Of a stretch of DNA of 15,112 bases, positions 1-15,112 are shown piece after piece. Source of the DNA: a virus (taxonomy: Duplodnaviria > Heunggongvirae > Uroviricota > Caudoviricetes); IMG/VR virus record IMGVR_UViG_648276650_000001, positions 1 to 15,112 of that record, one strand, 5' to 3'. A program made the position numbers and the translations under genes. The notes beneath the pieces are model-generated. The model was not told where the DNA came from and did not search any database. It was given only the letters and a program-made list of their open reading frames with translations. Position 1 is the stretch's first letter. The number at the start of each line of letters is the position of its first letter.

Positions 1-342
1 GACGAAGTAATTTTCAGGGAATATTTCTATGATACACCACCAGAAGGAAAATACAGATGTGTCGGAGAGGATGGGCTGCCTGCGTGGGCAGATATTCCTC
101 CACCCACGCATGAAGAACTTATTGAAATTACAGAATCAGAAAGACAGCTACTAATTAACCAGGCCAACGAATACATGAACAGTAAGCAATGGCCCGGTAA
201 AGCCGCTATTGGTCGTCTGAAAGATGATGAACTGGCGCAATATAATTTGTGGCTGGATTATCTGGACGCACTGGAACTGGTTGATACCTCCAGTGCTCCA
301 GATATTGAATGGCCTACGCCTCCGGCAGTTCAGGCCAGATGA
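1..342 (+). CDS. tfa: Tail fibre assembly protein, C-terminal part only (5' end lies outside the window); convergent with the minus-strand tfa
   Basis: Frame 1 of the plus strand is open from base 1 to TGA at 340-342 and translates to ...GRLKDDELAQYNLWLDYLDALELVDTSSAPDIEWPTPPAVQAR*. The C-terminal motif (TSxAPDIEWP) is the conserved Tfa end as I recall it from lambda Tfa. Absent from the ORF track because no long Met-initiated stretch falls inside the window. Confidence 0.7.
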   Translation, partial: DEVIFREYFYDTPPEGKYRCVGEDGLPAWADIPPPTHEELIEITESERQLLINQANEYMNSKQWPGKAAIGRLKDDELAQYNLWLDYLDALELVDTSSAPDIEWPTPPAVQAR

Positions 343-919
343 CATCCGGCGCGGTGCTGGTATCTGTTGCCGTCACCGCGTCAATGTAATCCAGCACGGC
401 GTTAAGTCGGGTTGTTTCTGCCTGCGTCAACTTCCGTCCGGCCTGTAATTTCAGCTGAATCAGACTAATGGAAACCATTGCTGCATCAATCAGTGACTGG
501 CGCTGTGCTTCTGCCGCTTTTACTGCGGCACCATATTGTGCCTCAGTATCTGTCACCCATTTCTCACCATCCCATTTATCGTATGGCGTTAACGGAGCGA
601 TAGTGCTCGTATTTTCAGGGTAATCTCCTGGCGCGGTGATTTCTTTTGGTTCTCCAGTTTCGGTGCTATAAACAATTTCACCGCGATGGTCTGGCACATA
701 TTTCCACGAGTTCAAATCCGTTGAGCGGCATATTGCATAACCAGCTTTAGATGCACCTGGTGCATCTAAACAAGAACATGCCGGGATACCGACACCGACA
801 GCAAGATATTCTGTTGATGTTGAAATATATTCCTGCGTCTCACCATCATAATTATAAACGGTAACATTCCCCGCCTTTGTAGCAATAAGCTCACTATTTA
901 ATACAGCTTTATTCATCAT
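314..919 (-). CDS. tfa: Tail fibre assembly protein (Tfa-like chaperone)
   Basis: 201-aa ORF. The C-terminal half (DHRGEIVYSTETGEP...YDKWDGEKWVTDTEAQ...DTSTAPDVIWPELPEA) resembles lambda Tfa as I recall it. The start overlaps the stop of the upstream tail-fibre gene in an ATGA arrangement. Confidence 0.85.
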   Translation of the reverse strand: MMNKAVLNSELIATKAGNVTVYNYDGETQEYISTSTEYLAVGVGIPACSCLDAPGASKAGYAICRSTDLNSWKYVPDHRGEIVYSTETGEPKEITAPGDYPENTSTIAPLTPYDKWDGEKWVTDTEAQYGAAVKAAEAQRQSLIDAAMVSISLIQLKLQAGRKLTQAETTRLNAVLDYIDAVTATDTSTAPDVIWPELPEA

Positions 920-1887
920 GCAGCCCTCACAATATAATTAAAAGCGATGTTACGTGGACGATTTTCATTTGCTGTTGGAACGACATTTGCTGCAGAAAAA
1001 TAAACATCTTGTCTGATACGTCTGTCTGTTGCGTAAGTCATAGGTACGTTAATGTTATTTCTAGTAGTTTCTTCCCCATAAAAGGCCCCAGCCACACCAC
1101 TAACATCGATAATTGCATTAATCTCACTGTTAACACGCTGCTGACCGAATGAACCAGTGATGTTTCGAATGGCATCTCCCTGTGACGAAAGCAAGCTACG
1201 GTTAGTATCAATTCCTCTTCCATCATCCCAGCCACGAATGAACTCACCACGTAAATCAGGCAATTTTTTTGTCGGGTAAGCCTTTGCCAGTTCCGGGTAT
1301 TCTTCAGCAGAAAAAACCGCACCGTTGCATTTCAGCCAGCCTGTTGGCGGAGTGGCGGAAGGCCACGGAACAGGGACACCAACAGGTAATGCAGAGCCTT
1401 CTCCCAAACCAAGGTTTGTGCTAGCGTCTGCGGCATTCGTTGCGCCGGTACCACCTTGATTAACCGGCAAAGCTCCGTTGCTCCCCTTCTGCAGTAATTT
1501 CCCAAGAGCCGGGATTGATAAACTGGTGCCATTGATCGTAACGGTAATGTTCTGGTTGGCTGAGGTTGTGGCGAACGTCTCCCACGCACCAATATTCTCG
1601 TCATACTCCTTGATAAGCTGCGACATGGCCTGCGCCAGCCCATCAACCGAGATATTGTCTGATACCAGAATGCCGTACTTCTGGCCGCTCAGCGCCGGTG
1701 ATGCAGCAGGCGTTACCGTCATTGACGTGGCGCTATTCACGGATGAAATCTGGAACAGTTGCACCGGGTTAGACATCACGATAATTGTCTGGCCAGCGCG
1801 AACCTGGCTGGCCGGTGCAGTCCAGTTTGTACCGGAGCCGGTTGCGGTATTTCCGTTAATAGAGATAGTTCCGGTGCTATAAATCAT
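916..1887 (-). CDS. Tail fibre protein (short, 323 aa) with a C-terminal phage-tail-collar type domain
   Basis: The C-terminal region (PVPWPSATPPTGWLKCNGAVFSAEEYPELAKAYP...LPDLRGEFIRGWDDGRG...NIAFNYIVRAA) resembles the conserved C-termini of E. coli prophage side tail fibre proteins (StfR-type ...NIAFNYIVRLA) as I recall them. It has its own AGGAG Shine-Dalgarno 5 nt upstream of the ATG at 1887. Confidence 0.85.
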   Translation of the reverse strand: MIYSTGTISINGNTATGSGTNWTAPASQVRAGQTIIVMSNPVQLFQISSVNSATSMTVTPAASPALSGQKYGILVSDNISVDGLAQAMSQLIKEYDENIGAWETFATTSANQNITVTINGTSLSIPALGKLLQKGSNGALPVNQGGTGATNAADASTNLGLGEGSALPVGVPVPWPSATPPTGWLKCNGAVFSAEEYPELAKAYPTKKLPDLRGEFIRGWDDGRGIDTNRSLLSSQGDAIRNITGSFGQQRVNSEINAIIDVSGVAGAFYGEETTRNNINVPMTYATDRRIRQDVYFSAANVVPTANENRPRNIAFNYIVRAA

Positions 1888-2392
1888 AACAACTCCTAAA
1901 TTTAGACAACATGAAGCCCGGAGAGGTATATAACCCTCACCAGAAATAATTTCTGAATTGGTTTTTAATACATGTTGGGCAACGCCAGTGTTGGCATAGC
2001 TATAGTTGTATCAAATGCCATTGACCACCAACCCAAATAATAATTGCCGACTACTTTATTCCTTTCCGCTATGACATTCCCACCTGTCATTACAATTCCT
2101 TTATACCTAATATTTCCGTAACCACCAACGTGTCGACAGTTAGCCCCGGTATAAACAATCTGGCAAAATTTATCACCAATATTCAGGTTCGCATTGGTGA
2201 TATTTATTGTCCCATCAAAAATGAATGGCTTCGTGCAAGTAAGAACACGTTTGCGTTGACGATTGGTTTATTCAATCCATCAACTAGAATACCTTGTAAA
2301 AGAATTGCCATAATATTTCTCACTTTATTTAACTTACTCAGCATAACAAGTATATTGAAATTCAACCATGTCAACAACACAAAGGAGTCCCA
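1888..2392. promoter_or_regulatory. AT-rich non-coding region between the divergent tail-fibre gene (-) and lipoprotein gene (+); presumed to hold divergent promoters
   Basis: About 500 bp with no convincing ORF and clearly more AT-rich than the flanking coding sequence. Exact -35/-10 hexamers could not be assigned with confidence. Confidence 0.4.
2171..2202. repeat. Perfect 10-bp inverted repeat with a 12-bp spacer (TATCACCAAT-n12-ATTGGTGATA); candidate protein-binding site
   Basis: Read directly: tatcaccaat (2171-2180) and attggtgata (2193-2202) are exact reverse complements. Confidence 0.5.
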
Positions 2393-2626
2393 ATGAAACT
2401 CGCTCTAATTATGCTGCCATTATGTCTGTCCCTCACTGCATGTGGTAATGGTTTAAATACCGGTAAACCAAATTCCGGTGTCATTCCAAAACCTTTGGAT
2501 CGCGATGGTAACGGTTCTTTAATTTATGATACCGAAAAGCTTCCAATGACTGGGCAATGGTGCCATGAAATTGATCACGAATACAGACGAATTGGTTCAC
2601 CTTCAAACTGTGTGATTGATTATTGA
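2393..2626 (+). CDS. Small lipoprotein (77-aa precursor); candidate Cor/Llp-like superinfection-exclusion moron
   Basis: AAAGGAG Shine-Dalgarno 7-8 nt upstream of the ATG. N-terminus MKLALIMLPLCLSLTAC has a hydrophobic core and an LTAC lipobox, with Gly at +2. Two further Cys in the mature part. AT-rich relative to the tail genes. Followed by a strong hairpin with a T-tract. Confidence 0.75.
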   Translation: MKLALIMLPLCLSLTACGNGLNTGKPNSGVIPKPLDRDGNGSLIYDTEKLPMTGQWCHEIDHEYRRIGSPSNCVIDY

Positions 2627-2662
2627 TAATTAACCCCTCAAACGAGGGGTTAATTATTTATT
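2627..2662 (+). terminator. Intrinsic terminator for the lipoprotein gene, formed by a 13-bp perfect palindrome and shared with the 3' end of J
   Basis: taattaacccctc (2627-2639), loop aaac, gaggggttaatta (2644-2656), then tttatt. The T-tract is good on the plus strand only; on the minus strand the hairpin is followed by TCAATAATC. Confidence 0.7.
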
Positions 2663-5600
2663 ACGACCAACTGCCAGTTCCGCGAGTCATTAATATTACA
2701 GACGGGCGCAAGTAGCTATTATAGACGTTCGTATACGCCTCCTTAACGCTTATTGTTACGCTCGACGCTGTCTTTCCTTTCACTGCTAACGGTATGGTTA
2801 CATCCATGTCGGGACCATTAGCAGCTCGCTCAATGCTCCTTGTAATTGAGGTCCCCCCTATGTTAGCAGTCACAGTTATACGACTTGCCTGATTTGATGT
2901 ATATGCGGTTAAACTATAACTTAATAGCAACACAAAGTCTTTAGATAATGTTGAACCAGATGAGTCTTTGAAAGTTTTTGTCCAGGTTCTTGAACTTGTA
3001 GTTTCTGTGTTTGGTATTGCGGACTCAGCAATGACACACATATTCGCAACATCACCGATAAAACTTTGCGCTTCTACAGTTCCTTTGAACTTACCGCTTG
3101 TTGCTTGTATCTCACCAGTAAAGCTACCGCCACTAGCATATACCACACCTCTGACAGTTACGTTATTGAATTCAGCATCCCCGGCTTTATCAAGCTTCCA
3201 GCCAGCAGAACCAGCAACATAATTGTTCGACTGGATATAGTTGCCGATTTTGGCGTTCTCAATGGTGCCGTCCTGGATGAAGCTGGCCCGGATGAATGTC
3301 TGCCCGTTCTGGATCACGAACGGCAAAGCCACGCTATTTCCGGCCGCCGTGGTGACGGCGAAGCGATCAGCCAGGAAGATAACCTGCGACTGCATGCCGG
3401 ATGGCGTATTCTCCACGCCGATCCCCATCCCTGCGGCGTAATACTGCCCGTTGCTGGAGACACCAACCTTGATGTTGTACATCGCGCTGAGTTCGCCATT
3501 AACGTTGGCTATAGCCTGAGCGTTAGTGGTGATGGCGGAGGTATGCCCGTTCACGGTCGCCGTGATGCCGTTTATCTGCGTGGCGGTGGCCTGCTGATAG
3601 TCGGAGAGCGTCTGATTCAGGCTGTTGATGGATGCCTTGTTGCCGTTGACGTCCGTCTGCAGGCTCAGCAATGAACGTGCTGTGGCTTCCTTCTCACTGA
3701 CGATCACCTCGTCGAGACGGTCCAGCTGAGCGCTGTTACCGGCGACCGTTGCGGATAGCCTTTTGCGTGTGGCGACCTGCGCCAGCCCGTTCTGGATAAT
3801 GGCAATGGCTGAGTTCTTGACCCCGCCCGTCATGCCATCCATAGACACACTGATGCTGTCGATTCGCTGGCCCAGCGCGGTATCAGCCGTCGCAACGGTC
3901 TGCTCAAGCTGACTGAGTGAAGACGAAACATTCCCGACCGTGCTGGAAAGCTCATTAACGCTGGTCTGAACCTTCCCGACGTCCTGGGCATTTTTGGCGA
4001 TGTCCTTCGCCTGCTGCTCCAGTTCGTCGTTGGCCTGTTTGATATCGTTAGCCATGTCAGCAATTTTTTCATTGCTGTCCACCGCGTTCTCGATCAGGTC
4101 CTTGAACGTATCGGAGCCTTTCATGTCCTCCAGGATCACATCTGTGATGTCGGAAACATCGATGCTGGCCTGTCCTCGCACCCATTCTGTGTACCCTGAT
4201 TCGTTGCCGCTGCGGTCCACCAGCTGAGCGCGGTACCAGAAAATCTGCCCAGCATTGAGGCCCATCTGCTGATATTTGCGCTGCGGATAAGGCACATCGG
4301 CCAGCAGCATCGCATCGTCCTCGGTTCCGGTCAGGCTGTACTGAATTTCCGTCTTCAGCGTGTCGTCGGTATTCGCCGGGAATCCCCAGTTCAGCTCGAT
4401 GCCGAAATCCACATTTTCAGAAGCGATGAAGCCAACCGGCTTAGGTGGATTGCCCACTTTACCCGTCAGCGTTTTCTCTTCTGAATAGCCCCATCCGGAT
4501 GAAATTTCTGCGGCATTGATTGCGCGCACCCGCACCAGGTAGCGCCCGGCATAAATCCCCGGGACGTCGAATGACGTGGTGGAGGTGCGCGGCACGTTAA
4601 CCCAGTTCCCGTCGTTGCGGCGCCATTGCGCTTCATAGGCGATAGCGTTCTGCGCCTGGTCCCAGCTCACGCGCATCGTTTCGACGCTGATATTTTGCTG
4701 CACCACGGAAAACGAGCTGATCACGATGTTCGCAGGCGGCGACTGGTTACCAGGCGGGATCACGCTCACCGGCCGCTGGTCAATAATGGCTCCGGTATCG
4801 ATTCGGGCATATTTATCCGGATCGTGCCATGCACCGGTAATGGTGAAAGTGCCATCATCGTTATCAGTGACGCTCACAACACGGTACTGCTGTGCGTACA
4901 GTTCGTTTGACTCAACCACCCAGACAGCTTCGGCCTGCGGCGTCTCACTGTATGCGGTGGTGACTGTGACCGATTCCCCGTTAACCGCCTGAATTGTCCT
5001 GCTCTGTGACGCTCCGGAGGGAAGGTTGAGGATAAGGCGATCACCTGCTGCCGCATCAGCTACACGGTCAAGTTTGATAACGCGACCATTAACGGCGCTG
5101 ATGCGTCCGCCCATAACCTTTCCGGAAAGCAGCTCGTCTGCCACAGCGATGATATAGCCAGGCTGCGGTATGTTTCCGTCCAGCCCGACATCGAACGAAA
5201 CAACGCGATCCTTGTTGTTGGTGAGAATACCCCAGCGCCCCTTTCGGTTCGCTTCTGACTGTCTGGTACAACCAATGGCTGTCATTTCGAGCTGATTTGT
5301 GCCAAAGCGAGCAACGAGATCCTGCTCAAATACAGGCTCCATCGCATCCGCGTAGGCATTACCCGGATCGGACCAGGAAACCAGTGCTGTGGTATAGCGG
5401 GTTTTCGTGGTGCTGCCCGAATAGGTAAAGCGCCCATTAACCACGTTTGCACGCGTGTAGCTGTAATCCACATCGCGGGGCATATCCGCCAGCGCAACGA
5501 TTTGATCGCCACCCCAGTACGTCATGCCCCGGAATATCGCCGCAAAATCACGTAACACGGTATAGGCATCATTCCTCTCCTGCACATACACGTTGCAGGT

Positions 5601-6605
5601 ATAGCGAGGCTCAGTGCCGCTACCGCCTTTACCATCAGGAACCGGCTGATCGCAATATTGCGCGACCTGGTAAAGCGTCCATTTATCAATATTGGTCGCC
5701 GTCAGGCGATTGCCCAGCCCAAAGCGGTCGCTCACCACCAGATCGTAAAAAATCCAGGCCGGATTATCCGTCCACGCCCACTTAAACACCCCCGTCCATG
5801 TGCCGCTATAGGTGCGGGTCTCCGGGTCATACGTATCCGGAACGCGGATTACACGGCCTCGCGGTTCGCAGGCTATTTGCGGGATAGAGCCGTTAAACTG
5901 GCTTGAGTCAAATTCGATGTAGAGCAGCGCGGTATTTGGATAACGCAGTTTGGCGTCGATAACCTCTGTGTAGCTCTGCAGCGTCATTGTGTCGCCAATT
6001 TTCGCGCTGTTGGCATCCGCCGTGAGCTTACGCAGGCGCACCGTCCATGTGCTGCCTGCCTGTGGTAAGTCGATGCGATGGCTGCGTTCGTAGCCGGAAG
6101 TTGTCTTGCCGGTTACGCTGGTATTAAGTACCGTCTGCCAGGTACCACCATCAGTCTGCAGATCAATGGCGTAGTTAATTGAATAGCCAACCAGATCGCC
6201 ATCGTTCTCCTGTTTAAAAAGCGATGGCCATTTCAGGCGCAGGCGAACGGCTGACAGCTGCGTGTTGGTAAAGGTGTGTGTCCAGGCGGTGGTGCTTGAA
6301 ACTTCGGTGCCCACGCTGATTTCGTTTTCGGTACCGGGGATGCCCTGAATGTATTTTTGTGCCTGCGTCCCCGGGCGGAATTCCCACGCCACGCCGCTGA
6401 AGTTTTGCGAACCGTCTGCATTCTCCAGTGGTGTGCCGTCGAGATAGATATCTTTCGCCGTCAGTTGCCCGGCAAATTCCCCCTCTCCCAGCGCAACAAG
6501 AATTTTGGCCTTTGCTACGGACTGGAGGTCGTCTGGTTGTTCAGTCGGGGTGCGGGAACTTGAGCTGCCGCCCTTGCGGCCTCTAATCGGAGTAGATGTA
6601 GCCAT
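2661..6605 (-). CDS. J: Tail tip / host specificity protein J (central tail fibre, 1314 aa)
   Basis: Very long ORF immediately after I in lambda gene order. Internal segments (e.g. YPNTALLYIEFDSSQF, TWTGVFKWAWTDNPAWIFYD, CDQPVPDGKGGSGTEPRYTCN, FTITGAWHDPDKYA) resemble lambda gpJ as I recall it. Includes a long Ala/Gln/Ser-rich coiled-coil-like stretch and a distinct C-terminal domain. Confidence 0.95.
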   Translation of the reverse strand: MATSTPIRGRKGGSSSSRTPTEQPDDLQSVAKAKILVALGEGEFAGQLTAKDIYLDGTPLENADGSQNFSGVAWEFRPGTQAQKYIQGIPGTENEISVGTEVSSTTAWTHTFTNTQLSAVRLRLKWPSLFKQENDGDLVGYSINYAIDLQTDGGTWQTVLNTSVTGKTTSGYERSHRIDLPQAGSTWTVRLRKLTADANSAKIGDTMTLQSYTEVIDAKLRYPNTALLYIEFDSSQFNGSIPQIACEPRGRVIRVPDTYDPETRTYSGTWTGVFKWAWTDNPAWIFYDLVVSDRFGLGNRLTATNIDKWTLYQVAQYCDQPVPDGKGGSGTEPRYTCNVYVQERNDAYTVLRDFAAIFRGMTYWGGDQIVALADMPRDVDYSYTRANVVNGRFTYSGSTTKTRYTTALVSWSDPGNAYADAMEPVFEQDLVARFGTNQLEMTAIGCTRQSEANRKGRWGILTNNKDRVVSFDVGLDGNIPQPGYIIAVADELLSGKVMGGRISAVNGRVIKLDRVADAAAGDRLILNLPSGASQSRTIQAVNGESVTVTTAYSETPQAEAVWVVESNELYAQQYRVVSVTDNDDGTFTITGAWHDPDKYARIDTGAIIDQRPVSVIPPGNQSPPANIVISSFSVVQQNISVETMRVSWDQAQNAIAYEAQWRRNDGNWVNVPRTSTTSFDVPGIYAGRYLVRVRAINAAEISSGWGYSEEKTLTGKVGNPPKPVGFIASENVDFGIELNWGFPANTDDTLKTEIQYSLTGTEDDAMLLADVPYPQRKYQQMGLNAGQIFWYRAQLVDRSGNESGYTEWVRGQASIDVSDITDVILEDMKGSDTFKDLIENAVDSNEKIADMANDIKQANDELEQQAKDIAKNAQDVGKVQTSVNELSSTVGNVSSSLSQLEQTVATADTALGQRIDSISVSMDGMTGGVKNSAIAIIQNGLAQVATRKRLSATVAGNSAQLDRLDEVIVSEKEATARSLLSLQTDVNGNKASINSLNQTLSDYQQATATQINGITATVNGHTSAITTNAQAIANVNGELSAMYNIKVGVSSNGQYYAAGMGIGVENTPSGMQSQVIFLADRFAVTTAAGNSVALPFVIQNGQTFIRASFIQDGTIENAKIGNYIQSNNYVAGSAGWKLDKAGDAEFNNVTVRGVVYASGGSFTGEIQATSGKFKGTVEAQSFIGDVANMCVIAESAIPNTETTSSRTWTKTFKDSSGSTLSKDFVLLLSYSLTAYTSNQASRITVTANIGGTSITRSIERAANGPDMDVTIPLAVKGKTASSVTISVKEAYTNVYNSYLRPSVILMTRGTGSWS

Positions 6606-6614
6606 ATTGCGCCC

Positions 6615-6641
6615 ATAAAAAAAGCCACCCTGAGGTGGCTT
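6615..6641 (-). terminator. Intrinsic-terminator-like hairpin between the 88-aa ORF and the J start codon
   Basis: On the minus strand: AAGCCACC, loop TCAG, GGTGGCTT, followed by a T-run of about 7 that includes the stem end. The J ATG lies about 11 nt further downstream. Confidence 0.6.
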
Positions 6642-6659
6642 ATTGCAAGAGAAAATTAA

Positions 6660-6926
6660 TCAGATATTTGTTTCGCTAAATGGGTTTACAAAATCAGCTT
6701 CTGCTTTGAAAAACTGACAATCACTGGACGACGTTACTGATACTGGAATACCGGTATCTTCAACTTCATATAGCTTTGAATATTTATCGGAAACTTTGCC
6801 AGAAAATGTCTCGCGACAAATAACCTCTCCGCCACGGTTTACTATTACTGTCGCATTTCCGCCGATCAGGATTCCGTCATCAACGCGATGCAGGCCTGAA
6901 ATGGTCAATCTTAAGTATTTCTTCAT
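6660..6926 (-). CDS. Hypothetical 88-aa protein inserted between I and J; unknown function
   Basis: ATG overlaps the I stop (ATGA). GGGGA Shine-Dalgarno-like motif about 6 nt upstream. Noticeably more AT-rich than I and J. Lambda has no gene at this position. I recognise no family for the sequence MKKYLRLTISGLHRVDDGILIGGNATVIVNRGGEVICRETFSGKV... Confidence 0.55.
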   Translation of the reverse strand: MKKYLRLTISGLHRVDDGILIGGNATVIVNRGGEVICRETFSGKVSDKYSKLYEVEDTGIPVSVTSSSDCQFFKAEADFVNPFSETNI

Positions 6927-7510
6927 TGTTGATCCCCAACGTAAATCCCGGCTGAAATAATTGCGCCGCCTATGCGTCGGCGACCATAAAGAAGCGGTAC
7001 CGGATAGCCCTGCGCTGCGGTGTTTGTGACTCCGCCGAACGCGTATGAGGCGCGGTTATCTGAGCTCTGTTTGCTGGCCAGCCCTGTAGCCTGGGGGGAT
7101 AACATCTGAACTACACCCCCCAGCGTTATGGACGCACCAGCAGCAAACATCATATTGCTGGCAGCTATACTCAGACCTGGCATCCAGATCGATGCAATCA
7201 CTAATACTGCGCCCAGGATAGTTTGAATCAAACCGGCTTTTTTACTCCCGATGATTACCGGGACAATGCGGATAACATCGCCGGTAACCGGGAAACCGAG
7301 GTCATCCACACCGATGTTTTTTTTACCCTTAAATACGGAGTATGTGATCCCACGGCGCTGGCTGGAAATCATAAACTGCTCAAAGCCCGGAATAGTCTTT
7401 GCGAGCGCCACTCCCGCCTCGCTTACACGGGAAATCAGGCGGTGGTGAATTTTACCGAATGATTTCCCGAGCACGCCGCCAAGCTCAATGCGGGTCATTA
7501 CTTCCTGCAT
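6923..7510 (-). CDS. I: Tail assembly protein I
   Basis: 195 aa, between K and J. Gly/Ala-rich hydrophobic middle and the C-terminal motif (VPLLYGRRRIGG) resemble lambda gpI (LPVLYGEMRVGS) as I recall it. Confidence 0.9.
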   Translation of the reverse strand: MQEVMTRIELGGVLGKSFGKIHHRLISRVSEAGVALAKTIPGFEQFMISSQRRGITYSVFKGKKNIGVDDLGFPVTGDVIRIVPVIIGSKKAGLIQTILGAVLVIASIWMPGLSIAASNMMFAAGASITLGGVVQMLSPQATGLASKQSSDNRASYAFGGVTNTAAQGYPVPLLYGRRRIGGAIISAGIYVGDQQ

Positions 7511-8229
7511 GTTTCACCTGCCATTACATCTTTATAGCGAACGATCTTCATCGTGCGCTCCTGCCAGTATCCGCCATAAGGAACTCGCTGGCTCAGATGC
7601 CCGTAAAGATGGTGCAGCAGCATGTTACCCTCCAGTAAAATCCCGGCATGATTCCACTTATCGGCCTGCACCTGCATGATTACGAGGTCCCCTTCCTGAG
7701 GCGGGCCGTCAAACTCCCTGAATCCGCATTCATACCAGCAATCCTGATAGAAATTGTCCGGGTAGTCGTTTTCCCACCAGGGATAATCCACCCGGTAATC
7801 GTAGAGCTCGATACCGTGGGTCTGCCGGAAATAGCTCATTACCAGACCCCAGCAATCGAAGTGGCCAAGCACAAACGGTCGCTCCAGCAATGGGAGCTCC
7901 CCGCGTGGCTGAATGGTACGTAAATCCCCCTCTGGCCAGCTCACAATATGCCAGGGCAGCAGTGTTGCATCACACTGCGCCTTATCAAGCTCGCTGGCCT
8001 GTGTCGTCGCGTCAGGATGGCTGTGAACAATGGCTACCACCGTCCCCCAGTCTTCTGCCGCTGCGTAATCTTCGGGGGACAGGTGAAAATGTTCAGTCGG
8101 CTCTGCTGCGAGATTACGACAGGGAAAATAGCGCTCAACCCGGCTTTTCTGTGCCACCACGCCGCAGCACTCGCGCGGATATTCCGCTGCAGCGTGTGCC
8201 ATGATGGCATCAATGGTTTTCTGACGCAT
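7498..8229 (-). CDS. K: Tail assembly protein K (MPN/JAB plus NlpC/P60-like domains)
   Basis: N-terminus MRQKTIDAIMAHAAAEYPRECCG resembles lambda gpK (MRQETLNAIRAHAAA). Contains an HSHP JAMM-type motif and a DCWGL Cys motif. Position between L and I. Confidence 0.9.
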   Translation of the reverse strand: MRQKTIDAIMAHAAAEYPRECCGVVAQKSRVERYFPCRNLAAEPTEHFHLSPEDYAAAEDWGTVVAIVHSHPDATTQASELDKAQCDATLLPWHIVSWPEGDLRTIQPRGELPLLERPFVLGHFDCWGLVMSYFRQTHGIELYDYRVDYPWWENDYPDNFYQDCWYECGFREFDGPPQEGDLVIMQVQADKWNHAGILLEGNMLLHHLYGHLSQRVPYGGYWQERTMKIVRYKDVMAGETCRK

Positions 8230-8230
8230 A

Positions 8231-8986
8231 TCAGCTCCTGATAAGAGATGTACCCGGGAAACCGCCGAACGGCAGTTCGTTGCTGTCTCCGTGCCGGAGC
8301 TTGCAGGCCGTCAGCGTGCCGTTGCAGACATCCAGCGAGGGATCGTCAACCGGATTATTGTTTTTGTCGAAATAGCGCGTTCCGGCATAGTCGCAGCCGT
8401 CGCCGGTCCGGTACTTGTTCCGGATGCACCAGCTGCATAACGAATGCAGCTGACGCGTCGGAATCATCTGGCCCTGTAAATCCATCGGACTGGAAAGCGT
8501 AAATTCGACAACTTCATCCGTCTCGGTGCTTCTGGCATCGATATAAAAGACCTTCAGCTTTTCCTGTGACGGGTCTGCAGTGGGATTGCCCTGCGGAAAA
8601 TTTCTGGCGTCCAGATACTGTGCCAGCGTGTCGTGGATACTCACTTTCGCCTGCAGCAGATCGTCATACGCCAGACAGAGCGCTGAGATCGAGCTGTCCA
8701 GGTTCGCCACCCTCAGTTTTGGCTGTGGGCTGGTACCATCCGTGGTCGCTTCAATACCCTCAACCTGACACGGCCAGGCTTTATACTCCTCCCCCTGCCA
8801 CCAGATGGACTTCGCCGGAAGTTTATTCTCGTCGCCGCCTGCGGCTTCAATCTCTTCCGGGGTGTGCGCGATATTGTGTGCGTGGAAGCGGAGCACATCT
8901 GACATACCGAACGCTGTACCATCGACAGAAAAAAGCCGGACTTCATTGCCCGGCTCAAGTTTTTGATAATCAGCATTAAGACTCAT
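8231..8986 (-). CDS. L: Minor tail protein L
   Basis: 251 aa, between M and K. Cys-rich C-terminal region consistent with the Fe-S-binding gpL family. Start overlaps the M stop. Confidence 0.9.
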   Translation of the reverse strand: MSLNADYQKLEPGNEVRLFSVDGTAFGMSDVLRFHAHNIAHTPEEIEAAGGDENKLPAKSIWWQGEEYKAWPCQVEGIEATTDGTSPQPKLRVANLDSSISALCLAYDDLLQAKVSIHDTLAQYLDARNFPQGNPTADPSQEKLKVFYIDARSTETDEVVEFTLSSPMDLQGQMIPTRQLHSLCSWCIRNKYRTGDGCDYAGTRYFDKNNNPVDDPSLDVCNGTLTACKLRHGDSNELPFGGFPGTSLIRS

Positions 8987-9330
8987 GGTGTAAATGCCTG
9001 TTCAAACGTTGCGGTTACGGTTATCACTTTTACGTTTTTAACCACCTTTTTGAGCGTGTCAGCCTCTACACGCCACAGCGCGGTATCGCCGAAAGGCGGA
9101 GTGAAAATAAATGACTTCACTTTATGCCGACGAAGGAAGGCATGGATTTCATTCGCTGTAGTCGGATCTCCTGAAAAGGAATATTCATAGGTGCGAATCT
9201 CATCATTCAGGCCGGAGCCGCTCACCTGTGCGTACCCGTCGCCGAACTGGACTTTCCTGACTATGTCTTTACTTCCCTCGGTGGGCTGGCTGGAAACCTT
9301 AATGCCCCAGGGGAATGTTTCTATCGTCAT
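8983..9330 (-). CDS. M: Minor tail protein M
   Basis: 115 aa, immediately after the tape measure gene in lambda order; size and position match gpM. Confidence 0.85.
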   Translation of the reverse strand: MTIETFPWGIKVSSQPTEGSKDIVRKVQFGDGYAQVSGSGLNDEIRTYEYSFSGDPTTANEIHAFLRRHKVKSFIFTPPFGDTALWRVEADTLKKVVKNVKVITVTATFEQAFTP

Positions 9331-9335
9331 AACTG

Positions 9336-11852
9336 TTACCTGCGATTGGTCGCATTCCAGATAAGCCCACCGGGCTGGATTGCCCTGGCGATACCATCAT
9401 TGACAGATTTGTTAATCACCTGCTGATACGCCTTACCCAGCCTGTCTCCGTCGTTTTGCTGCTGTGCGTTACCGGAAGCATTCTCGACCGTCACCGGGGC
9501 ATACACACTGACACCGAAAGGTGCTGCAGCCGGGCCTGTACCACCGCCCCCGACATACCCTCCCGTTGCATAGCCTTTCATCATCCGGTAAAGATTGCCG
9601 ACGCCGATCCTGCTGGTAGCCTCTTTGGTGAAAACAAACTCACCACGGTGAACGACACCTGCTGGCTCATATTTCCCGCCTGAACCGGTATAACCGCCAC
9701 CTGCAAATCCCAGCGCGGTTGATGCTGAATCCACCAGGCCTACCATCGCCTGTTTCAGCAGGATCTGTGTCAGCATGGAGAGCGTGGAGCGGGTGAAGTC
9801 AGCCCAGTCAGCCTTTCCGCGCGTCAGCATGTCAGCCATATTTTGCCCAATGCCATCAAACGTACTGCTGGCAAACGACTTCATCTGGCCATAAGCATCA
9901 GAAGCAGAATCAACATAATCTGCCCATGCGGATTTGGCTCCGGATTGCCAGTCACCCCGAAGCTTATCCTGCTCGGCGTAATACGCATGCAGCCCCTGCA
10001 GCTCATTCTGATAACCGGCATCGTTTTCGGAACCTCCACCATTTTTCCACCCCTGAAGAAGCTGGGCCTCCTCGTTGCGGCGTTGTGCTGCACGACTGCT
10101 CATACCAGCACTTTCCGCCAGGGCTCGGGTTTTCTCGCCGATCTGCGTGACGTATTTTTGGGACGTATCCTGCAGGCGATTAAGCCGCTCCTGCGCCACT
10201 ATCTGATCGCCGAGCTTCGCGTTCAGCTCCGCACGGGAAAGCACCTCGCTTTTACTGGCCAGCAGGGATTTTTCCTCGGCAGAAAGCGTCCGGGTCTTCG
10301 CGGCCTCTTCCAGAACCGTAAAACGGGACTGCTTACGCCACAGCTCCTGACGCTGCTGGCTGATGGTGTCATTTATCCCCTTATGCTCCTGCAGGGTGCG
10401 CAGCTGTGCTTCCAGCTCCATCGTCTGGGCGCTGGCCGCATCGGTTGCACGGGTACCGGCAGGAGTCCTGACTGCAGGTGTTTTCTTCGGCTTTTTAAGG
10501 GTGTCTTCGTACTCTTTTTTCGCGGCAGCCAGGTTGATGTTGTAGTCAGCCTGGAGGATCCGCCCCTCTTTCAGCGCCTTGTTGAGCTCGCTCTGCCTGG
10601 CCGTGTATTTCTCCAGTGCCGTCTGCGTTTTGGCATAGTTTGCCTGTGCCTGCGCAGCATACTTCTGGCGATCCGATTCCGCAGCCGCTTCGCGCGATGC
10701 ATTCTCTTCGTTCGCCATGGCAATTCCCGCCTGCTGCTGCGCCATATCCAGCGCAAGCCTGGCCGTTTCGCGGTCATTCCAGAATCGGGCGCGAGCCTCA
10801 TCATTGACATATCGGTCACCTTTACGCAGGTTCCAGATTTCATCAGCCTTTTTAAACGCGGCCTGGGCTTTTGCCACCATCTCCTGGGCGGTGTCAGGTC
10901 TGCCAATATCAAGTGCAGCATCCCACATCGACTTGAAGGCACGCTTCAGGGAATCCGCTGAAGACTCAATCGTCCCCATATTGTCGCGGATGGCCTTGGT
11001 CTGATCGTTGAATCCGGCAGTAGCAGCCTGATTAGCCGCCTGCAGTGCGCCAGCCTCATCACCGGCACGCTGCAGCTGTGCCACATGGGCAATCTGTTCG
11101 GCCGTAACGTTGTGGAACTGCTGAGCCATCGCGATCAGGCCTGATGTAGGGTCAGTAGTGAGCTTGCCGTATGCGGCTGCGACTTTTTCCACCGGCACGC
11201 CGGAGGCATCAGTAAATCGCGCCACCGCCTGGCTCATTTCATCAAAGCGCGAACTCGCGCCCACCCCCGCGTTGATAAGCTCGCTCAGGGCTTCGCTGGT
11301 CTGATTGAACGTCAGCCCCGCTGCCTGGCCGTTTCGTGCCAGCGCCAACATACGATCGGCAGTCAATCCGGCCGTGTTCCCCGACAGTACCAGCGTTTTG
11401 TTGAAGTCAGATAGTGTGGATGAGCCCTGGTACCAGGCATAGAACAGCGCACCCGTTGCGGCGGACAGCGCACCGATGCCGACCATCAACGGTGAGATCG
11501 TACCCAGTAAGGCCCTGAATGTTGGTATTATCCCGCCAAAGGAGTCCTTAACCTGACCGCCCTGCTGAAGCAGAATCAGCCATGGGTTCTGCCCGCCCGC
11601 TAGCTGCGTAGCTATATCGGTAAACTGCGCCGGAAGCATACGCATTGCTGCGTTATACTGGCCTATTGAAATACCCGCCTTGCGCGCGGCGTTCTCCTGG
11701 CGGCTAAAGGACTGCTGGATCCGTAGCGCTTCGTCGTTCGCCGCGCTGCCAGTCTGCTTTAATTCTTTTTTGACGTAGTTAAGCTGCTCGTTAAATTTCG
11801 TCGAGTTAACGTCAAGGTTAACGACCAGATCACCCACTGCCGTCTGGGCCAT
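9336..11852 (-). CDS. H: Tail tape measure protein H
   Basis: 838 aa. The N-terminal region (GDLVVNL...KAGISIGQYNAAMRMLPAQFTDIATQLAGGQNPWLILLQQGGQVKDSFGG) closely resembles lambda gpH as I recall it. Long Ala/Gln-rich helical middle and Gly-rich C-terminus. Confidence 0.95.
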   Translation of the reverse strand: MAQTAVGDLVVNLDVNSTKFNEQLNYVKKELKQTGSAANDEALRIQQSFSRQENAARKAGISIGQYNAAMRMLPAQFTDIATQLAGGQNPWLILLQQGGQVKDSFGGIIPTFRALLGTISPLMVGIGALSAATGALFYAWYQGSSTLSDFNKTLVLSGNTAGLTADRMLALARNGQAAGLTFNQTSEALSELINAGVGASSRFDEMSQAVARFTDASGVPVEKVAAAYGKLTTDPTSGLIAMAQQFHNVTAEQIAHVAQLQRAGDEAGALQAANQAATAGFNDQTKAIRDNMGTIESSADSLKRAFKSMWDAALDIGRPDTAQEMVAKAQAAFKKADEIWNLRKGDRYVNDEARARFWNDRETARLALDMAQQQAGIAMANEENASREAAAESDRQKYAAQAQANYAKTQTALEKYTARQSELNKALKEGRILQADYNINLAAAKKEYEDTLKKPKKTPAVRTPAGTRATDAASAQTMELEAQLRTLQEHKGINDTISQQRQELWRKQSRFTVLEEAAKTRTLSAEEKSLLASKSEVLSRAELNAKLGDQIVAQERLNRLQDTSQKYVTQIGEKTRALAESAGMSSRAAQRRNEEAQLLQGWKNGGGSENDAGYQNELQGLHAYYAEQDKLRGDWQSGAKSAWADYVDSASDAYGQMKSFASSTFDGIGQNMADMLTRGKADWADFTRSTLSMLTQILLKQAMVGLVDSASTALGFAGGGYTGSGGKYEPAGVVHRGEFVFTKEATSRIGVGNLYRMMKGYATGGYVGGGGTGPAAAPFGVSVYAPVTVENASGNAQQQNDGDRLGKAYQQVINKSVNDGIARAIQPGGLIWNATNRR

Positions 11853-12581
11853 AGCGCACGCCTCCTGAAATACCTGCAGCCTTCGCCATCAGCGTATCGT
11901 CATCCGGCTCATCAACGTCGATGCTTTCCGATACAGGGGAAAGGATGCTGAAACTGTCCGGTGTTAATTCCGGATCAGCAAAAAACAGGGTTGAGATGGT
12001 GTAGAGCAAACCGGAGAAATGAGCATCCAGCTGCGCATCATGAAAGTAATTGTCCTGGTAGAAGATTTTCCAGTCGCCGTATTCCGTTGAGGACATGCCA
12101 GCAAGCATGGCACGCCAGTCCGGGCGACCGAACTCACGCGCCAGTTTCATGGCAAACTTCAGCTCACTGGCGAGGGCTTTTCCGCAGTAACAGGTTCAGC
12201 GGGTTCATTACGTTCTTCACCGGGCTCAGCCTGGTCATCAGTGACCGGCGCAATCATCCCGGACAGGAGTTTCACCTTATATTCGGCTTCGGCAACAAGT
12301 TCGGTCGGCCATGTCTGCATGACCTCATCCTGAATCTGCTCCACTTCCGCCGCCGCGTTTTCTCCCTGCGATCCTTTAAGCGCGTGGCCATGCCAGAGTG
12401 ACATTGCCACCAGATATGCTCCACTCTTCACGGTAAGGGTAATGGCAGCCTGAAAATCACCAGCTTCAACCGCCTCAAGTTGTTTCAGGTATTCGAGGTA
12501 TTCAATACGCTGCAGCGCCGACAGCTGGAACAATGTGACGCTGCTGCCGTTACTTTCAAGCAGCTCGCTCTTTAGAAACAT
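11830..12581 (-). CDS. T: Tail assembly chaperone G-T, predicted -1 programmed frameshift fusion (T frame continues to the stop at 11832-11830)
   Basis: The T reading frame is -1 relative to G and is open from 12195 to 11830, overlapping the last 12 G codons. The only slippery-looking motif in the overlap is GGAAAAG (minus strand, 12183-12177), one base different from lambda's GGGAAAG. The T end overlaps the H start, as in lambda. Confidence 0.75.
12159..12581 (-). CDS. G: Tail assembly chaperone G
   Basis: 140 aa. MFLKSELLESNGSSVTLFQLSALQRIEYL...AMSLWH...TWPTE...PAEPV...S matches the lambda gpG pattern as I recall it. GGAG Shine-Dalgarno 5 nt upstream. Confidence 0.9.
   Translation of the reverse strand: MFLKSELLESNGSSVTLFQLSALQRIEYLEYLKQLEAVEAGDFQAAITLTVKSGAYLVAMSLWHGHALKGSQGENAAAEVEQIQDEVMQTWPTELVAEAEYKVKLLSGMIAPVTDDQAEPGEERNEPAEPVTAEKPSPVS
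12177..12183 (-). other. Candidate -1 frameshift slippery heptamer G GAA AAG for G-T synthesis
   Basis: Read from the minus strand: zero-frame codons GCG GAA AAG CCC; -1 frame codons TGC GGA AAA GCC. The Lys-tRNA can re-pair AAG to AAA; the P-site re-pairing GAA to GGA is imperfect. Confidence 0.5.
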
Positions 12582-12597
12582 AATTACTCCGGGGGAA

Positions 12598-12613
12598 CGG
12601 GGCTTTCGCCCCG
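12598..12613 (-). other. GC-rich stem-loop (GAAA tetraloop on the mRNA) in the V-G intergenic region, next to the G ribosome-binding site
   Basis: cggggc (12598-12603) and gccccg (12608-12613) pair; on the minus strand CGGGGC-GAAA-GCCCCG. No following U-tract, so it is not a canonical terminator. Confidence 0.45.
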
Positions 12614-12617
12614 GTTA

Positions 12618-13355
12618 TCAGGAAACAGTGACTTTGCAGATCGCCACAAAGTTACCGTCATTGCTCATTACGATGATCTCGACGGTGCCTGCCGCCACGC
12701 CGGTAACAGTCAGGGTATTGCCGCTGACGGTGACCGTTGCTTTTGACGGATCAGAACTGGCTACGCGGAAAGACTTATCTGAAGCACTTGCTGGCAGGAC
12801 AGAAACAACCAGTTGCGTCGTGGCCGCGACAGCCACAGCCGCCGTGGATTTATCCAGGCTGATCCCCGTAACGGCAATCGGCGCGGTACCACTGTCTTCG
12901 GCCAGCGATGGTTTGCCATTGTTGGTGATTTTTGCCGTGCGGGTCATGACCTCTTTAGACGAGATGGTCTTGCCGAGACTGCTCACCCAGCCCTTAAAGA
13001 CATCGACAACACCATTCGGATATTTGATTTTATACCCCTTCACGGTGCCTTCATCGAACCAGTTCACCAGGTCCTGCTGACCGGAATCCTCCGGCATCCA
13101 TGCGAGCGTCAGGTTTGTTTCACCGGCTGATTTCTGCCCCTGCATCGTTGATGTCCAGTCGGCATTCTCATCATCGATGTAGGTGTCATCTTCCGATTCA
13201 GCTGTCAGTTCTCCGGGCTGCAGGTCTTTAATCTTTGCCAGGCGCAGCCAGTCAACGTCTGAAAGCGGATTGGCGTATGGATCACCAGTTCCGGTGTAAA
13301 CCCAGAGGGTGGTACCAGCACCTTTTGTTGGTGCCAGCGGGTTTGGTGTGGCCAT
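12618..13355 (-). CDS. V: Major tail protein V with C-terminal Ig-like (Big_2-type) domain
   Basis: 245 aa (lambda gpV is of similar length). C-terminal region has the Thr/Val/Ser-rich beta-strand pattern typical of bacterial Ig-like domains. Position after U. Confidence 0.9.
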
Positions 13356-13362
13356 AGGGTCC

Positions 13363-13761
13363 TCACATGTCGTAAGTAATGGAATATTTCAGGTCGGCAG
13401 AACTCCACAGCGCCATATCGTCATCGCGCTGGTAGTCATAGCCCTGCTGAACCATTGTGGTGATAAGAGATTCAAGCCCCGGAACCTCTGCGAGAACCGG
13501 ATACACTCTCGTCTCCATCCAGTCATCCAGATCAGAATCAGGTACCTGAGCCTCAAGAAAGACTTCGATATGCAGAATGGCCTGCCAGCTATCGGCGTCC
13601 AGTTCTTCCCCTGTGTATTCCGCATCTGTCAGGTAGACGGCAACAGCGGGAAAATCACCCTCTTCGAGCACTGCAGGTCTGCCGTCAAAATAAATGACAT
13701 CAGTACCAATCGCGCTTTCCAGCGCGTCAATAATCACCTTGCGAATATCGCTGTGTTTCAT
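13363..13761 (-). CDS. U: Tail terminator protein U
   Basis: 132 aa. [45 protein letters not shown]...[24 protein letters not shown] is close to lambda gpU as I recall it. Confidence 0.95.
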
Positions 13762-14312
13762 CGTGTCAGAATTAACCTGAGTTGGTTGGTAAGGGATGCC
13801 CGGAGCTCTTTGGGCATATCTGACTCCATGAGCTTCGGCAGTTCTTCTTTAAATGCCGTAGTTAATGGAGCTGCCAGCGGGATGCTGACCACTTCAATGG
13901 GGTAACGAGGTTTTGAAGTCCGCCTCATGACATGCCAGCGACCATTTTTAAGTTGCTGGATAAAGCCGCCCGGAAAACGAAATGGCCCTATGCGCAGAAC
14001 GCTGTTGGCCCCTTTCTTGTCCCGTTTTCTGCGGGAAAGTCGCACGCTTGCGGTACCGAGTTTAATGGCCGGTAAATTTCCCCGGTTTACCCGGATAAGT
14101 GCACGAGGTCTATTGACCGTCGCACGCTTCACCATGGCGCGTTGCTTTACCAGTTTTCGCGGTACGCGCGTATCTTTTGATACGACTGCCACGCTGCGGC
14201 TGACGGCCCGGTTTGCCACGCGGTTAACGGCCTGCGCCGATGCCCGCGGAACAGCCGTTTTGCTGATGCTGTTAAGGTTTTCTATGGCCTGTTCAAGGCC
14301 TTTTATGGACAT
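13758..14312 (-). CDS. Z: Minor tail protein Z
   Basis: 184 aa basic protein between FII and U; size and position match lambda gpZ. Confidence 0.85.
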   Translation of the reverse strand: MSIKGLEQAIENLNSISKTAVPRASAQAVNRVANRAVSRSVAVVSKDTRVPRKLVKQRAMVKRATVNRPRALIRVNRGNLPAIKLGTASVRLSRRKRDKKGANSVLRIGPFRFPGGFIQQLKNGRWHVMRRTSKPRYPIEVVSIPLAAPLTTAFKEELPKLMESDMPKELRASLTNQLRLILTR

Positions 14313-14321
14313 ATGCGCTCC

Positions 14322-14675
14322 TTAACGGCGACGCGAAGATGCAGGTGGAGAGCCGTTACCCAGACAGATATGACAGGAGCCACAGTCATCCGGACCAATA
14401 CGTTCAACCCAGAATTGCCGACCGTTAATCGTCAGCGTGTCCATACGCTGCAGCTGCCTGACAGTGGCGGTTTCCACAAACAGGGTCGGGCTGGTTCCTT
14501 CAACACGAATCCCGGCACCGGCATATCCGATATTTTCTGGATCATCGAATACACCGACCAGGGTGGCACCTGACAAAGCGCCTGACATCACCTTTGCCTC
14601 TGTGCCCATCACACCACGGATAGCGCTATCAGCTCGCGACATGGCCTCGTCAAAGAGATTATCGAAATCAGCCAT
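14322..14675 (-). CDS. FII: Head-tail joining protein FII
   Basis: 117 aa. MADFDNLFDEAMSRADSAIRG...GVFDDPENIGYAGAGIRVEGTSP...DTLTI...PDDCGSCHI closely resembles lambda gpFII as I recall it. Confidence 0.95.
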   Translation of the reverse strand: MADFDNLFDEAMSRADSAIRGVMGTEAKVMSGALSGATLVGVFDDPENIGYAGAGIRVEGTSPTLFVETATVRQLQRMDTLTINGRQFWVERIGPDDCGSCHICLGNGSPPASSRRR

Positions 14676-14685
14676 GTGGCCCCCT

Positions 14686-15093: not shown

Positions 15094-15112
15094 GGGAAAT
15101 ACTCCAGAAAGG

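Follow-up and report, generated by a model that had tools for sequence, protein, structure and literature searches.

Late transcription of lambdoid phages is antiterminated by Q, and RNA polymerase modified by this protein ignores terminators (PMC7547250, PMC8022706). Intrinsic terminators within such operons have been described for phage L and P22, P22-like podophages in which a terminator follows the procapsid gene module inside a single-promoter operon under Q-type antitermination (PMC8022706). The same work proposed two roles, partial termination or the stopping of transcription begun without antitermination, and treated the matter as an open question of phage genomics, saying of the roles that such terminators play in lambdoid late operons that they "are not known" (PMC8022706). 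Terminators of another kind accompany morons. In the HK97 gene 15 type, a factor-independent terminator follows an extra, compositionally deviant gene of the tail operon, and the summary of the moron criteria of Juhala et al. (2000) in PMC3594210 describes morons as AT-rich.

A terminator between the tail genes I and J of lambda-like phages is already known. It is annotated in GenBank records that go back to the HK97 and N15 genomes, and a terminator or putative terminator before J is also given in the records of phiKO2, mEpX1, HK75, mEp234, and HK633. Berget, Poteete and Sauer are said to have reported in 1983 a P22 terminator between the ant region and the tailspike gene 9. That terminator would likewise lie directly before a receptor-binding tail gene, beside a variable moron-like region, and be read through by antitermination; its sequence is unrelated to the I–J hairpin and the phage is of a different type, so that it serves as an analogy only.

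Here we compare these systems with a hairpin located upstream of J in a 15,112-nt stretch of DNA from a virus of the class Caudoviricetes (IMG/VR record IMGVR_UViG_648276650_000001, positions 1 to 15,112), hereafter the window. The discovery value is small, since the element is annotated in relatives and follows textbook rules, and what is added is mainly corrective.

Structure of the hairpin between the 88-aa ORF and J

All tail genes of the window are on the minus strand, namely H (11852–9336), M (9330–8983), L (8986–8231), K (8229–7498), I (6923–7510; tail assembly protein I, phrog_32, E 8.7e-73), an AT-rich inserted ORF of 88 aa (6660–6926) whose start overlaps the I stop in the sequence ATGA, and J (2661–6605), which encodes the tail tip/central fibre protein of 1314 aa with FNIII-A_GpJ, Phage-tail_3, and Phage_Tail_Tip matches. 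A pyrimidine-rich spacer of 18 nt (6642–6659) leads from the ORF stop to the hairpin. The hairpin consists of the 5' arm AAGCCACC (6634–6641), found by the terminator scan, RNA folding, and the covariance model, a UCAG tetraloop (TCAG in DNA; 6630–6633), and the 3' arm GGTGGCTT (GGUGGCUU in RNA; 6622–6629), found by the terminator scan and RNA folding. The run of seven T (6617–6623) corresponds to the terminator U-tract, and its first two T are paired in the stem. It is followed by TATGGG, and the ATG of J is at 6605–6603. Like the genes, these elements are read on the minus strand, i.e., in the sense of J; the RNA is AAGCCACC-ucag-GGUGGCUU (6641–6622) with U7 starting within the stem base, and the whole junction reads UGA-UUAAUUUUCUCUUGCAAU-AAGCCACC-ucag-GGUGGCUU-UUUUUAUGGGCGCAAU-AUG. 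The distance to the J start is 16 nt from the end of the stem and 11 nt from the end of the T run.

The terminator scan detects the hairpin with eight pairs, five of which are G-C, and a loop of four. It is contained in both the minimum-free-energy and the centroid structures of the RNA, and folding in isolation gives −13.1 kcal/mol. The GC-rich stem, the adjacent U-tract, the orientation in the sense of J, and the intergenic position after the ORF stop are all as expected for an intrinsic terminator, and the opposite strand has no T run. The initial annotation, which placed an 8-bp stem and a T run at 6615–6641, about 11 nt upstream of the J start, was thus correct in coordinates and description, the latter distance being that from the T-run end.

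On the window sequence alone, the hairpin signal is not above chance. A generic terminator scan of the window gave 16 sites against 15.4 expected from shuffled sequences, and the local 81-nt fold around the hairpin has z = −1.8. The whole window gave no match to Rfam 15 at the gathering threshold. A covariance model built from the hairpin family, in turn, matches 6614–6642 with 41.4 bits. The significance of the hairpin comes from comparison with relatives, through the census and the covariation described below, and not from the single sequence.

The hairpin in close relatives with and without the insert

The closest phage is HK225, which is 97.3% identical to the window across 6400–7200 and 97–99% identical over the hairpin and its flanks. 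In its GenBank record, the hairpin is already entered as a "rho-independent terminator," with a hypothetical protein (the 88-aa ORF) on one side and the central tail fibre gene on the other. The same record has a "late gene regulator Q" with an annotated terminator behind it; D, E, and cor are each followed by a terminator as well, and V by a stem-loop. The window, which has tail genes only, does not contain Q; since HK225 encodes Q with an annotated terminator behind it, read-through of the intrinsic terminators is to be expected in its late operon. By analogy with these relatives, the operon of the window would also be under Q antitermination.

Homology to the window extends from inside J to the 5' edge of the hairpin in N15, mEpX1, HK75, mEp234, HK633, HK97, and phiKO2. 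The annotated I–J terminators of these seven phages have the hairpin, the U run, and TATGGRCGC before the J ATG as in the window; they represent the same element at the same position, and nothing essential differs. What lies upstream of the hairpin, on the other hand, varies among the phages. The I stop is reached directly in N15, mEp237, mEpX1, and phiKO2, the 88-aa ORF is found in the window, HK225, and SaltyDalty, and gp22 and the reverse gp23 "moron" genes are found in HK97 and HK022. mEp237 corresponds to the window with the ORF taken out, and its hairpin is the same, down to the UCAG loop, except that the stem base differs from that of the window by a compensatory change from A-U to G-C. 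Matches to the J start and the hairpin were also found in 24 complete E. coli genomes, where the 88-aa ORF is absent.

The initial annotation had suggested that the terminator arrived with the inserted gene. This suggestion is contradicted by the above homology, which in phages that lack the insert covers the hairpin and breaks off at its 5' edge. The insert-free phages N15, mEp237, mEpX1, phiKO2, and lambda all keep a hairpin at the same distance from J.

Census of J loci

We collected 80 loci from one-genome-per-species contigs, almost all of Enterobacterales, using the first 200 residues of J as the anchor. With the phage loci and the window, the census comprised 90 loci, 85 of which could be given a J start. 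In 76 of these 85, a strict terminator scan found a site within the 90 nt preceding J, while 93-nt control windows from the same loci were positive in 3.3% (sense) and 3.8% (antisense). In every strict hit, a U run of 5–8 directly follows the stem, and its length is seven in 64 of the 76. Most of the misses show a hairpin by eye: two have one mismatch (L032 and L063) and one has a short stem (L075). In L081, the J start was wrongly assigned. Hairpins of the lambda type were also missed by the strict scan, in which greedy G-U extension consumed the U-tract, and these were counted by eye. The hairpin before J is clearly absent in only two loci of the 85-locus census, one from Rhodobacteraceae and one from Prochlorococcus.

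The 57 insert-free loci have only 50–65 nt from the I stop to the J start, a gap with room for just the spacer, the hairpin, and the J ribosome-binding site. The hairpin is present in all 57 (52 by the strict scan). In the 23 loci bearing inserts of 317–2029 nt, the insert is upstream of the hairpin without exception. With or without an insert, the distance from the stem to the AUG is 15–21 nt, mostly 16–17 nt. The K–I junction of the same loci behaves differently. By the strict scan, a terminator is found there in 0 of 21 loci without an insert and in 27 of 47 with one. These terminators follow the inserts and sit directly before the I ribosome-binding site, whereas K and I abut or overlap where no insert is present. 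The K–I terminators therefore resemble moron terminators in behavior. That a terminator occurs at K–I only with an insert but constitutively at I–J contradicts the arrival of the I–J hairpin with a moron, as does its presence at the same distance from J in every insert-free locus. In these loci, the hairpin is linked to the 5' flank of J and is borrowed rather than imported by inserts.

Evidence for selection on the RNA structure

The 76 strict hits represent 53 distinct hairpins with quite different stems, such as GCCACC/GGUGGC, ACCGCC/GGCGGU, GGGACGC/GCGUCCU, GGUCGC/GCGGCC, ACCUCC/GGAGGU, and CCCGC/GCGGG. The main covariation alignment was a gapless, loop-anchored one of 48 distinct sequences, in which 91.7% of the cells pair, compared with 27–59% in slid controls. 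Changes on both sides are observed in six of the eight stem pairs, in 47 cells. None of 500 shuffles reached the observed number of paired cells, cells with both-side changes, pair types, or the covariation score, and two of the 500 reached the count of six covarying pairs. Because its hairpins had been picked out in each sequence separately, this alignment is biased toward structure. The count was therefore repeated on 73 sequences aligned by MAFFT without guidance; 89% of the cells in this second alignment are paired (32–57% when slid), with 27 both-side-change cells, though plain MAFFT puts the hairpins with loops of 3, 5, and 6 nt out of register.

The loop sequences are also biased. The UNCG motif, which stabilizes RNA hairpins and is common in terminators, occupies the loop in 23 of the 53 distinct hairpins (14 UUCG, six UCCG, two UACG, and one UGCG). 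The covariation and the UNCG loops point to selection on the RNA structure.

Genetic context of the 88-aa ORF

The ORF was seen in 11 loci, which are the window, HK225, SaltyDalty, Enterobacter wuhouensis, and seven contigs of Enterobacter, Leclercia, and Citrobacter with more distant homologues, 74–91% identical. In all 11 contexts, the order is I, the ORF, a spacer of about 20 nt, the hairpin, and J. Conservation of the hairpin alongside the ORF, which the initial annotation had taken as a test of its proposal, is thus complete (11 of 11); the hairpin is equally kept where the ORF is absent, and the test does not separate the ideas.

The ORF start overlaps the I stop in ATGA in all eight contexts read at the sequence level (the window and L090–L096), and its Shine-Dalgarno (SD) sequence is GGGGA. 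The GC content of the ORF is 37–45%, compared with 50–60% in the flanks. No sigma-70-like promoter with at least 8 of 12 matches was found in the 400 nt upstream of the ORF, where a weak or non-consensus one is possible. The ORF shares with morons the deviant GC content and the position as extra DNA between the normally adjacent I and J, while a sigma-70 promoter of its own and a terminator arriving with the cassette are not found. Being AT-rich and coupled to I, with no promoter of its own found, the ORF does not qualify as a classical moron and rather resembles a late gene that was added and would be co-translated with I. The terminator of the window differs from moron terminators in the same manner, being present without any insert and, where an insert exists, following one for which no promoter was found.

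Lambda, T1-like phages, and other distant relatives

In lambda, the I–J gap of 60 nt contains the hairpin AAACCGCC-ugcg-GGCGGUUU-UGUCAUUUAUGGAG, which scores 30.7 bits with the covariance model and is located at about 15,462–15,481 of NC_001416, as converted from the coordinates of the locus. A tblastn search with the J N-terminus retrieved 1,724 phage records, of which 12 were sampled. All seven sampled virulent Drexlerviridae (Sd1, 12469II, IMGroot, pSf-1, vojen, SH2, and SRT8) have the I stop, a GC hairpin, T8, a −10-like box, a leader of about 35 nt, an SD, and J, in this order. The −10-like box is TGTATAAT, TGTACAAT, or TGTAGAAT, and TTGCGC is located 17 nt upstream of it, within the hairpin, in four of the seven. 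The hairpin is about 55 nt from J, with the predicted promoter in between. The presence of both a terminator and a predicted promoter before J indicates that I–J is a true transcription-unit boundary in these phages. To our knowledge, virulent T1-like phages have no Q.

This arrangement is similar to that of promoter-coupled terminators (bioRxiv 10.64898/2026.08.19.745784), since the T1-like I–J junction likewise has a −10 hexamer a few bases after the T-tract. The window is different in this respect. Neither scanning nor reading of the sequence after its T run revealed a −10-like hexamer or a J promoter, which means that J of the window depends on read-through.

Among the other sampled records, a hairpin before J is also found in one Pseudomonas phage and one Stx phage. 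No I–J hairpin was found in Dhillonvirus JL1, Vibrio phage Len, and Burkholderia phage E174, where I and J overlap or are 9 nt apart. The I–J hairpin is widespread but not universal; it is common to the lambda, HK97, N15, and phiKO2 types, to Pectobacterium and Brenneria prophages, and to virulent T1-like phages.

Translation start of J

The ribosome-binding region of J is UAUGGGCGCAAU (6606–6617, minus strand), in which TTTATGGGCGCAATATG is kept throughout the main family. The SD-like element is a weak GGG at 6614–6612. Its anti-SD pairing of −2.4 kcal/mol is the weakest among the window genes that are not translationally coupled to an upstream neighbor, in agreement with the weak motif noted in the initial annotation. 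Directly before J, U7-AUGG(G/A) is invariant, and the weak SD site, retained in over 60 loci, is evidently the one that functions. A low output from this site would suit a protein of which a virion requires only a few copies. The U7 run probably also serves as a U-rich leader of J, which may be used via ribosomal protein S1. The U-tract is specific to the I–J site and not general to hairpins of the operon, as the hairpin GGGGC-gaaa-GCCCC at the V–G junction has no U run.

The out-of-frame AUG in UUUAUGG was considered as the start of a conserved small ORF and rejected, the frame having about 33 codons in the window and about 10 in HK97 and mEpX1.

Possible roles of the I–J hairpin

We favor, with a probability of about 0.6, the explanation that the hairpin is a resident Rho-independent terminator belonging to the 5' flank of J and punctuating the I–J boundary of lambda-like tail modules. 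The view of the initial annotation that it is a canonical terminator-type hairpin within the late tail operon agrees with both its anatomy and the census. Polymerase unmodified by Q would release the transcript at the hairpin and U7; such polymerase might come from insert promoters, from spurious promoters in AT-rich inserts, or from leakage in the lysogen. Q-modified polymerase starting at pR' would read through the hairpin, and J and the genes behind it would then be made only from antiterminated late transcripts. After read-through, the hairpin would stay in the mRNA just upstream of the weak J site, U7-AUGGG. The short spacer between the I stop and the hairpin would be an insertion hot spot, where the 88-aa ORF may have landed to reuse a pre-existing hairpin. 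Two observations count against this explanation. Most insert-free loci have no obvious upstream promoter, so that a pure role in stopping unmodified polymerase does not readily account for the strong conservation. A role in the translation of J or in the stability of its mRNA would be just as compatible with the constant spacing to the J start and the invariant U7-AUGG. Among the accessible papers on 3'-end mapping of lambdoid late operons, none gave 3'-end or read-through data for the I–J junction.

Three of the alternatives can be judged largely from where the hairpin occurs and how it varies. Import of the hairpin together with the ORF, the two being parts of an autonomous promoter-gene-terminator cassette whose 3' end is the hairpin, would be in line with the HK97 record, which calls gp22 at this site a "moron product" and puts a putative terminator after it, with the AT-richness that the ORF has in common with morons (PMC3594210), and with the neighboring K–I terminators, which come only with inserts. 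It is nevertheless very improbable given the insert-free loci and mEp237, the N15-type and HK97-type homology that covers the hairpin, and an ORF whose start overlaps the I stop and that has no promoter found upstream. The hairpin-T7-ATGG block might instead act at the DNA level, as a short homology patch through which J modules and cassettes are exchanged. The homology breakpoints at the 5' edge of the hairpin, the many different inserts in the slot upstream of it, the nearly identical block before I in loci with K–I inserts, and the gene I of one locus (L012) that is flanked on both sides by a shared stretch of about 27 nt are all consistent with such a linker. The compensatory changes, the differing stems, and the UNCG enrichment, however, reflect selection on RNA folding and not on a fixed DNA sequence, and the feature is oriented, with the U-tract on the sense strand only; we regard the linker as improbable. 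The 3' end of an sRNA that derives from the 3' end of I or of the 88-aa ORF is the idea to which we give the least credence. The pyrimidine-rich spacer, the hairpin, and the U tail do resemble the U/C-rich tract, hairpin, and poly-U of an Hfq-binding module (PMC4104026), and lambdoid prophages encode many Hfq-bound sRNAs (PMC4104026). The EHEC prophage sRNAs covered there map to the moron site at pR' and not to tail genes (PMC4104026), the window has neither an Rfam match nor a detected promoter for such an RNA, and the spacer upstream varies from one insert type to another.

The remaining alternatives concern J expression. As an attenuator of J dosage, the hairpin would partially terminate even Q-modified polymerase, or set J apart as a separate, weaker unit. 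The rationale is that few copies are required of J, the protein that nucleates tail-tip assembly, and this role is compatible with the resident terminator. The pairing of the terminator with a conserved weak J SD speaks for it, as do the T1-like phages, whose J has its own predicted promoter after the terminator and is thereby uncoupled from the upstream tail genes; partial termination is also among the two roles proposed for intra-operon terminators (PMC8022706). On the other side, a good SD (GGAG or GAGG) follows the hairpin in lambda and in some distant relatives. Moreover, Q-modified polymerase strongly resists intrinsic terminators, and J might hence be lowered only slightly. Attenuation is a viable role, though less likely than not. 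The hairpin may alternatively act in the read-through mRNA, as a 3' barrier shielding the V-to-I message from exonucleases that start in the long, poorly translated J, as a 5' protective stem of a processed J mRNA, or as an insulator keeping the U-rich J site unpaired regardless of what has inserted upstream. The fixed distance of 15–21 nt, the constant association of the hairpin with J, the invariant U7-AUGG, and the signs of selection on RNA structure would suit such an element, and other late-operon hairpins in HK225 and the window follow D, E, and V, genes for abundant proteins. A stability hairpin needs no U-tract, however, as that at V–G illustrates, yet at least five U are present in all scan hits here. 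The upstream genes M, L, K, and I do not encode abundant products, and the Drexlerviridae hairpin, separated from J by a predicted promoter, is not part of the J leader. A post-transcriptional role of this kind is also viable, with a somewhat lower probability than attenuation.

A broader version of the resident-terminator explanation, which we put forward tentatively and with well under even odds, is that the I–J hairpin is an ancient J-tied punctuation that sets the dose or timing of the tail-tip initiator J relative to the other tail genes, by attenuation, by mRNA processing, or by a coupled promoter in virulent lineages, with a safe landing pad for foreign genes as a by-product. If this is true, foreign genes can insert at I–J without disturbing J expression. 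Since the terminator at this site is a fixture of J, calling morons from a gene-plus-terminator pattern can mislead. The constitutive I–J terminators and the insert-only K–I terminators, together with the compensatory stem variants, form a natural set for testing the role of intra-operon terminators in antiterminated phage operons.

Predicted product of the 88-aa ORF

A Pfam search with the 88-aa ORF gave no family, and its PHROGs matches are to families of unknown function only. The homologues, from Enterobacter, Leclercia, and Citrobacter, are all annotated as "hypothetical protein." The AlphaFold model of the product is a confident all-beta sandwich with a pLDDT of 88.5. In a fold search with this model, the best matches, which are weak, were lambda gpJ fibre entries (E about 2e-3, TM 0.45–0.46), and the other weak matches were beta-sandwiches.

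The 88-aa ORF inserted between genes I and J

The AT-rich 88-aa ORF (6660–6926, minus strand) lies between gene I and the pre-J hairpin in all 11 contexts, and its start codon overlaps the stop codon of I through ATGA in each of the eight contexts read at sequence level. Its predicted fold is a confident all-beta sandwich, for which the fold matches to gpJ fibre entries are weak. Instead of being a lysogenic-conversion moron, the ORF may encode a late accessory protein that serves in the virion or in assembly. The sources of its homologues are almost all Enterobacter, Leclercia, and Citrobacter, and at megablast sensitivity it was not found in 5,426 complete E. coli genomes (matches to the J start and hairpin, H33–H56). 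The closest phage, HK225, was nevertheless isolated on E. coli.

Sequence elements adjoining the pre-J hairpin

Downstream of the hairpin, an out-of-frame AUG (6614–6616, minus strand) is embedded in an invariant UUUAUGG, and an equivalent site is present in lambda (L009). The distance from this AUG to the J AUG is 11 nt in the window and 14 nt in lambda. The length of the reading frame that it opens is not conserved, suggesting that the AUG is probably only a part of the SD-like sequence UAUGG(G/A).

Loci with HK97/HK022-type inserts (gp22 and a reverse-oriented gp23 between I and J in those two phages) have the motif CATCCTGATATTYGATCAG in common just upstream of the hairpin (L005, L006, L022, L024, L028, L029, L031, L052, L053, L055, L057, L060, L064, L072, and L076). 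The motif includes an inverted repeat, CTGAT-N5-ATCAG, that adjoins the hairpin, and might serve the gp23-like gene, which is reverse-oriented, as an operator or promoter element.

The I-J junctions of the virulent T1-like phages (Drexlerviridae; L098, L099, L102, and L104–L107) are composed of a terminator followed at once by a near-consensus −10 box, both before J. In four of them, TTGCGC is located inside the hairpin, 17 nt upstream of the −10 box. These junctions are predicted to be promoter-coupled terminators. In phage Sd1, J is annotated from an ATG that directly follows TGTAGA, and this start may have been placed too far upstream.

Terminator-like structures at other positions of the tail operon

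Inserts at the K-I junction close with a terminator whose module is nearly identical to that before J, consisting of a hairpin, T7, ATGGRG, about 6 nt, and ATG. The module is seen within the 60 nt before the I start in L004, L005, L006, L012, L019, L020, L024, and others. In L012, a direct repeat of about 27 nt (GCCACCTTCGGGTGGCTTTTTTTATGG) is found on both sides of gene I. The shared module could be a recombination substrate, or the two junctions could have converged on an optimal terminator-plus-RBS design.

The hairpin at the V-G junction of the window (12599–12612, minus strand), GGGGC-GAAA-GCCCC with a GNRA loop, is immediately followed by the SD of gene G (GGAG), has no U run, and is labeled only as "stem_loop" in the HK225 record. 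It is a candidate 3′ stabilizer of the major tail protein message. The top-strength terminator-like site of the terminator scan (8933–8956, minus strand; 9 bp with six G-C pairs, then TTTTCTG) falls within the coding sequence of gene L near its 5′ end, about 30 nt past the L start.

The cassette downstream of J and phage sequences in unrelated assemblies

On the plus strand downstream of J, two small ORFs of 88 and 77 aa (2130–2626) run convergently towards its 3′ end and form a reverse-oriented accessory cassette, possibly of the Cor-like exclusion type. The 77-aa ORF matches the lipoprotein family phrog_12984 (E = 9e-57), while this plus-strand 88-aa ORF has no family match. HK225 differs from the window at this cassette.

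Enterobacterial phage sequences also occur within assemblies of unrelated organisms (L079, L087, L088, and L089), one case being a Deinococcus petrolearius contig of 617 nt. The other three are lambda-like I-J junctions, from a Bacillota MAG, from Chromatium weissei, and from Oceanobacillus profundus. Contamination, for example by lambda control DNA, is the most likely origin of all four loci.
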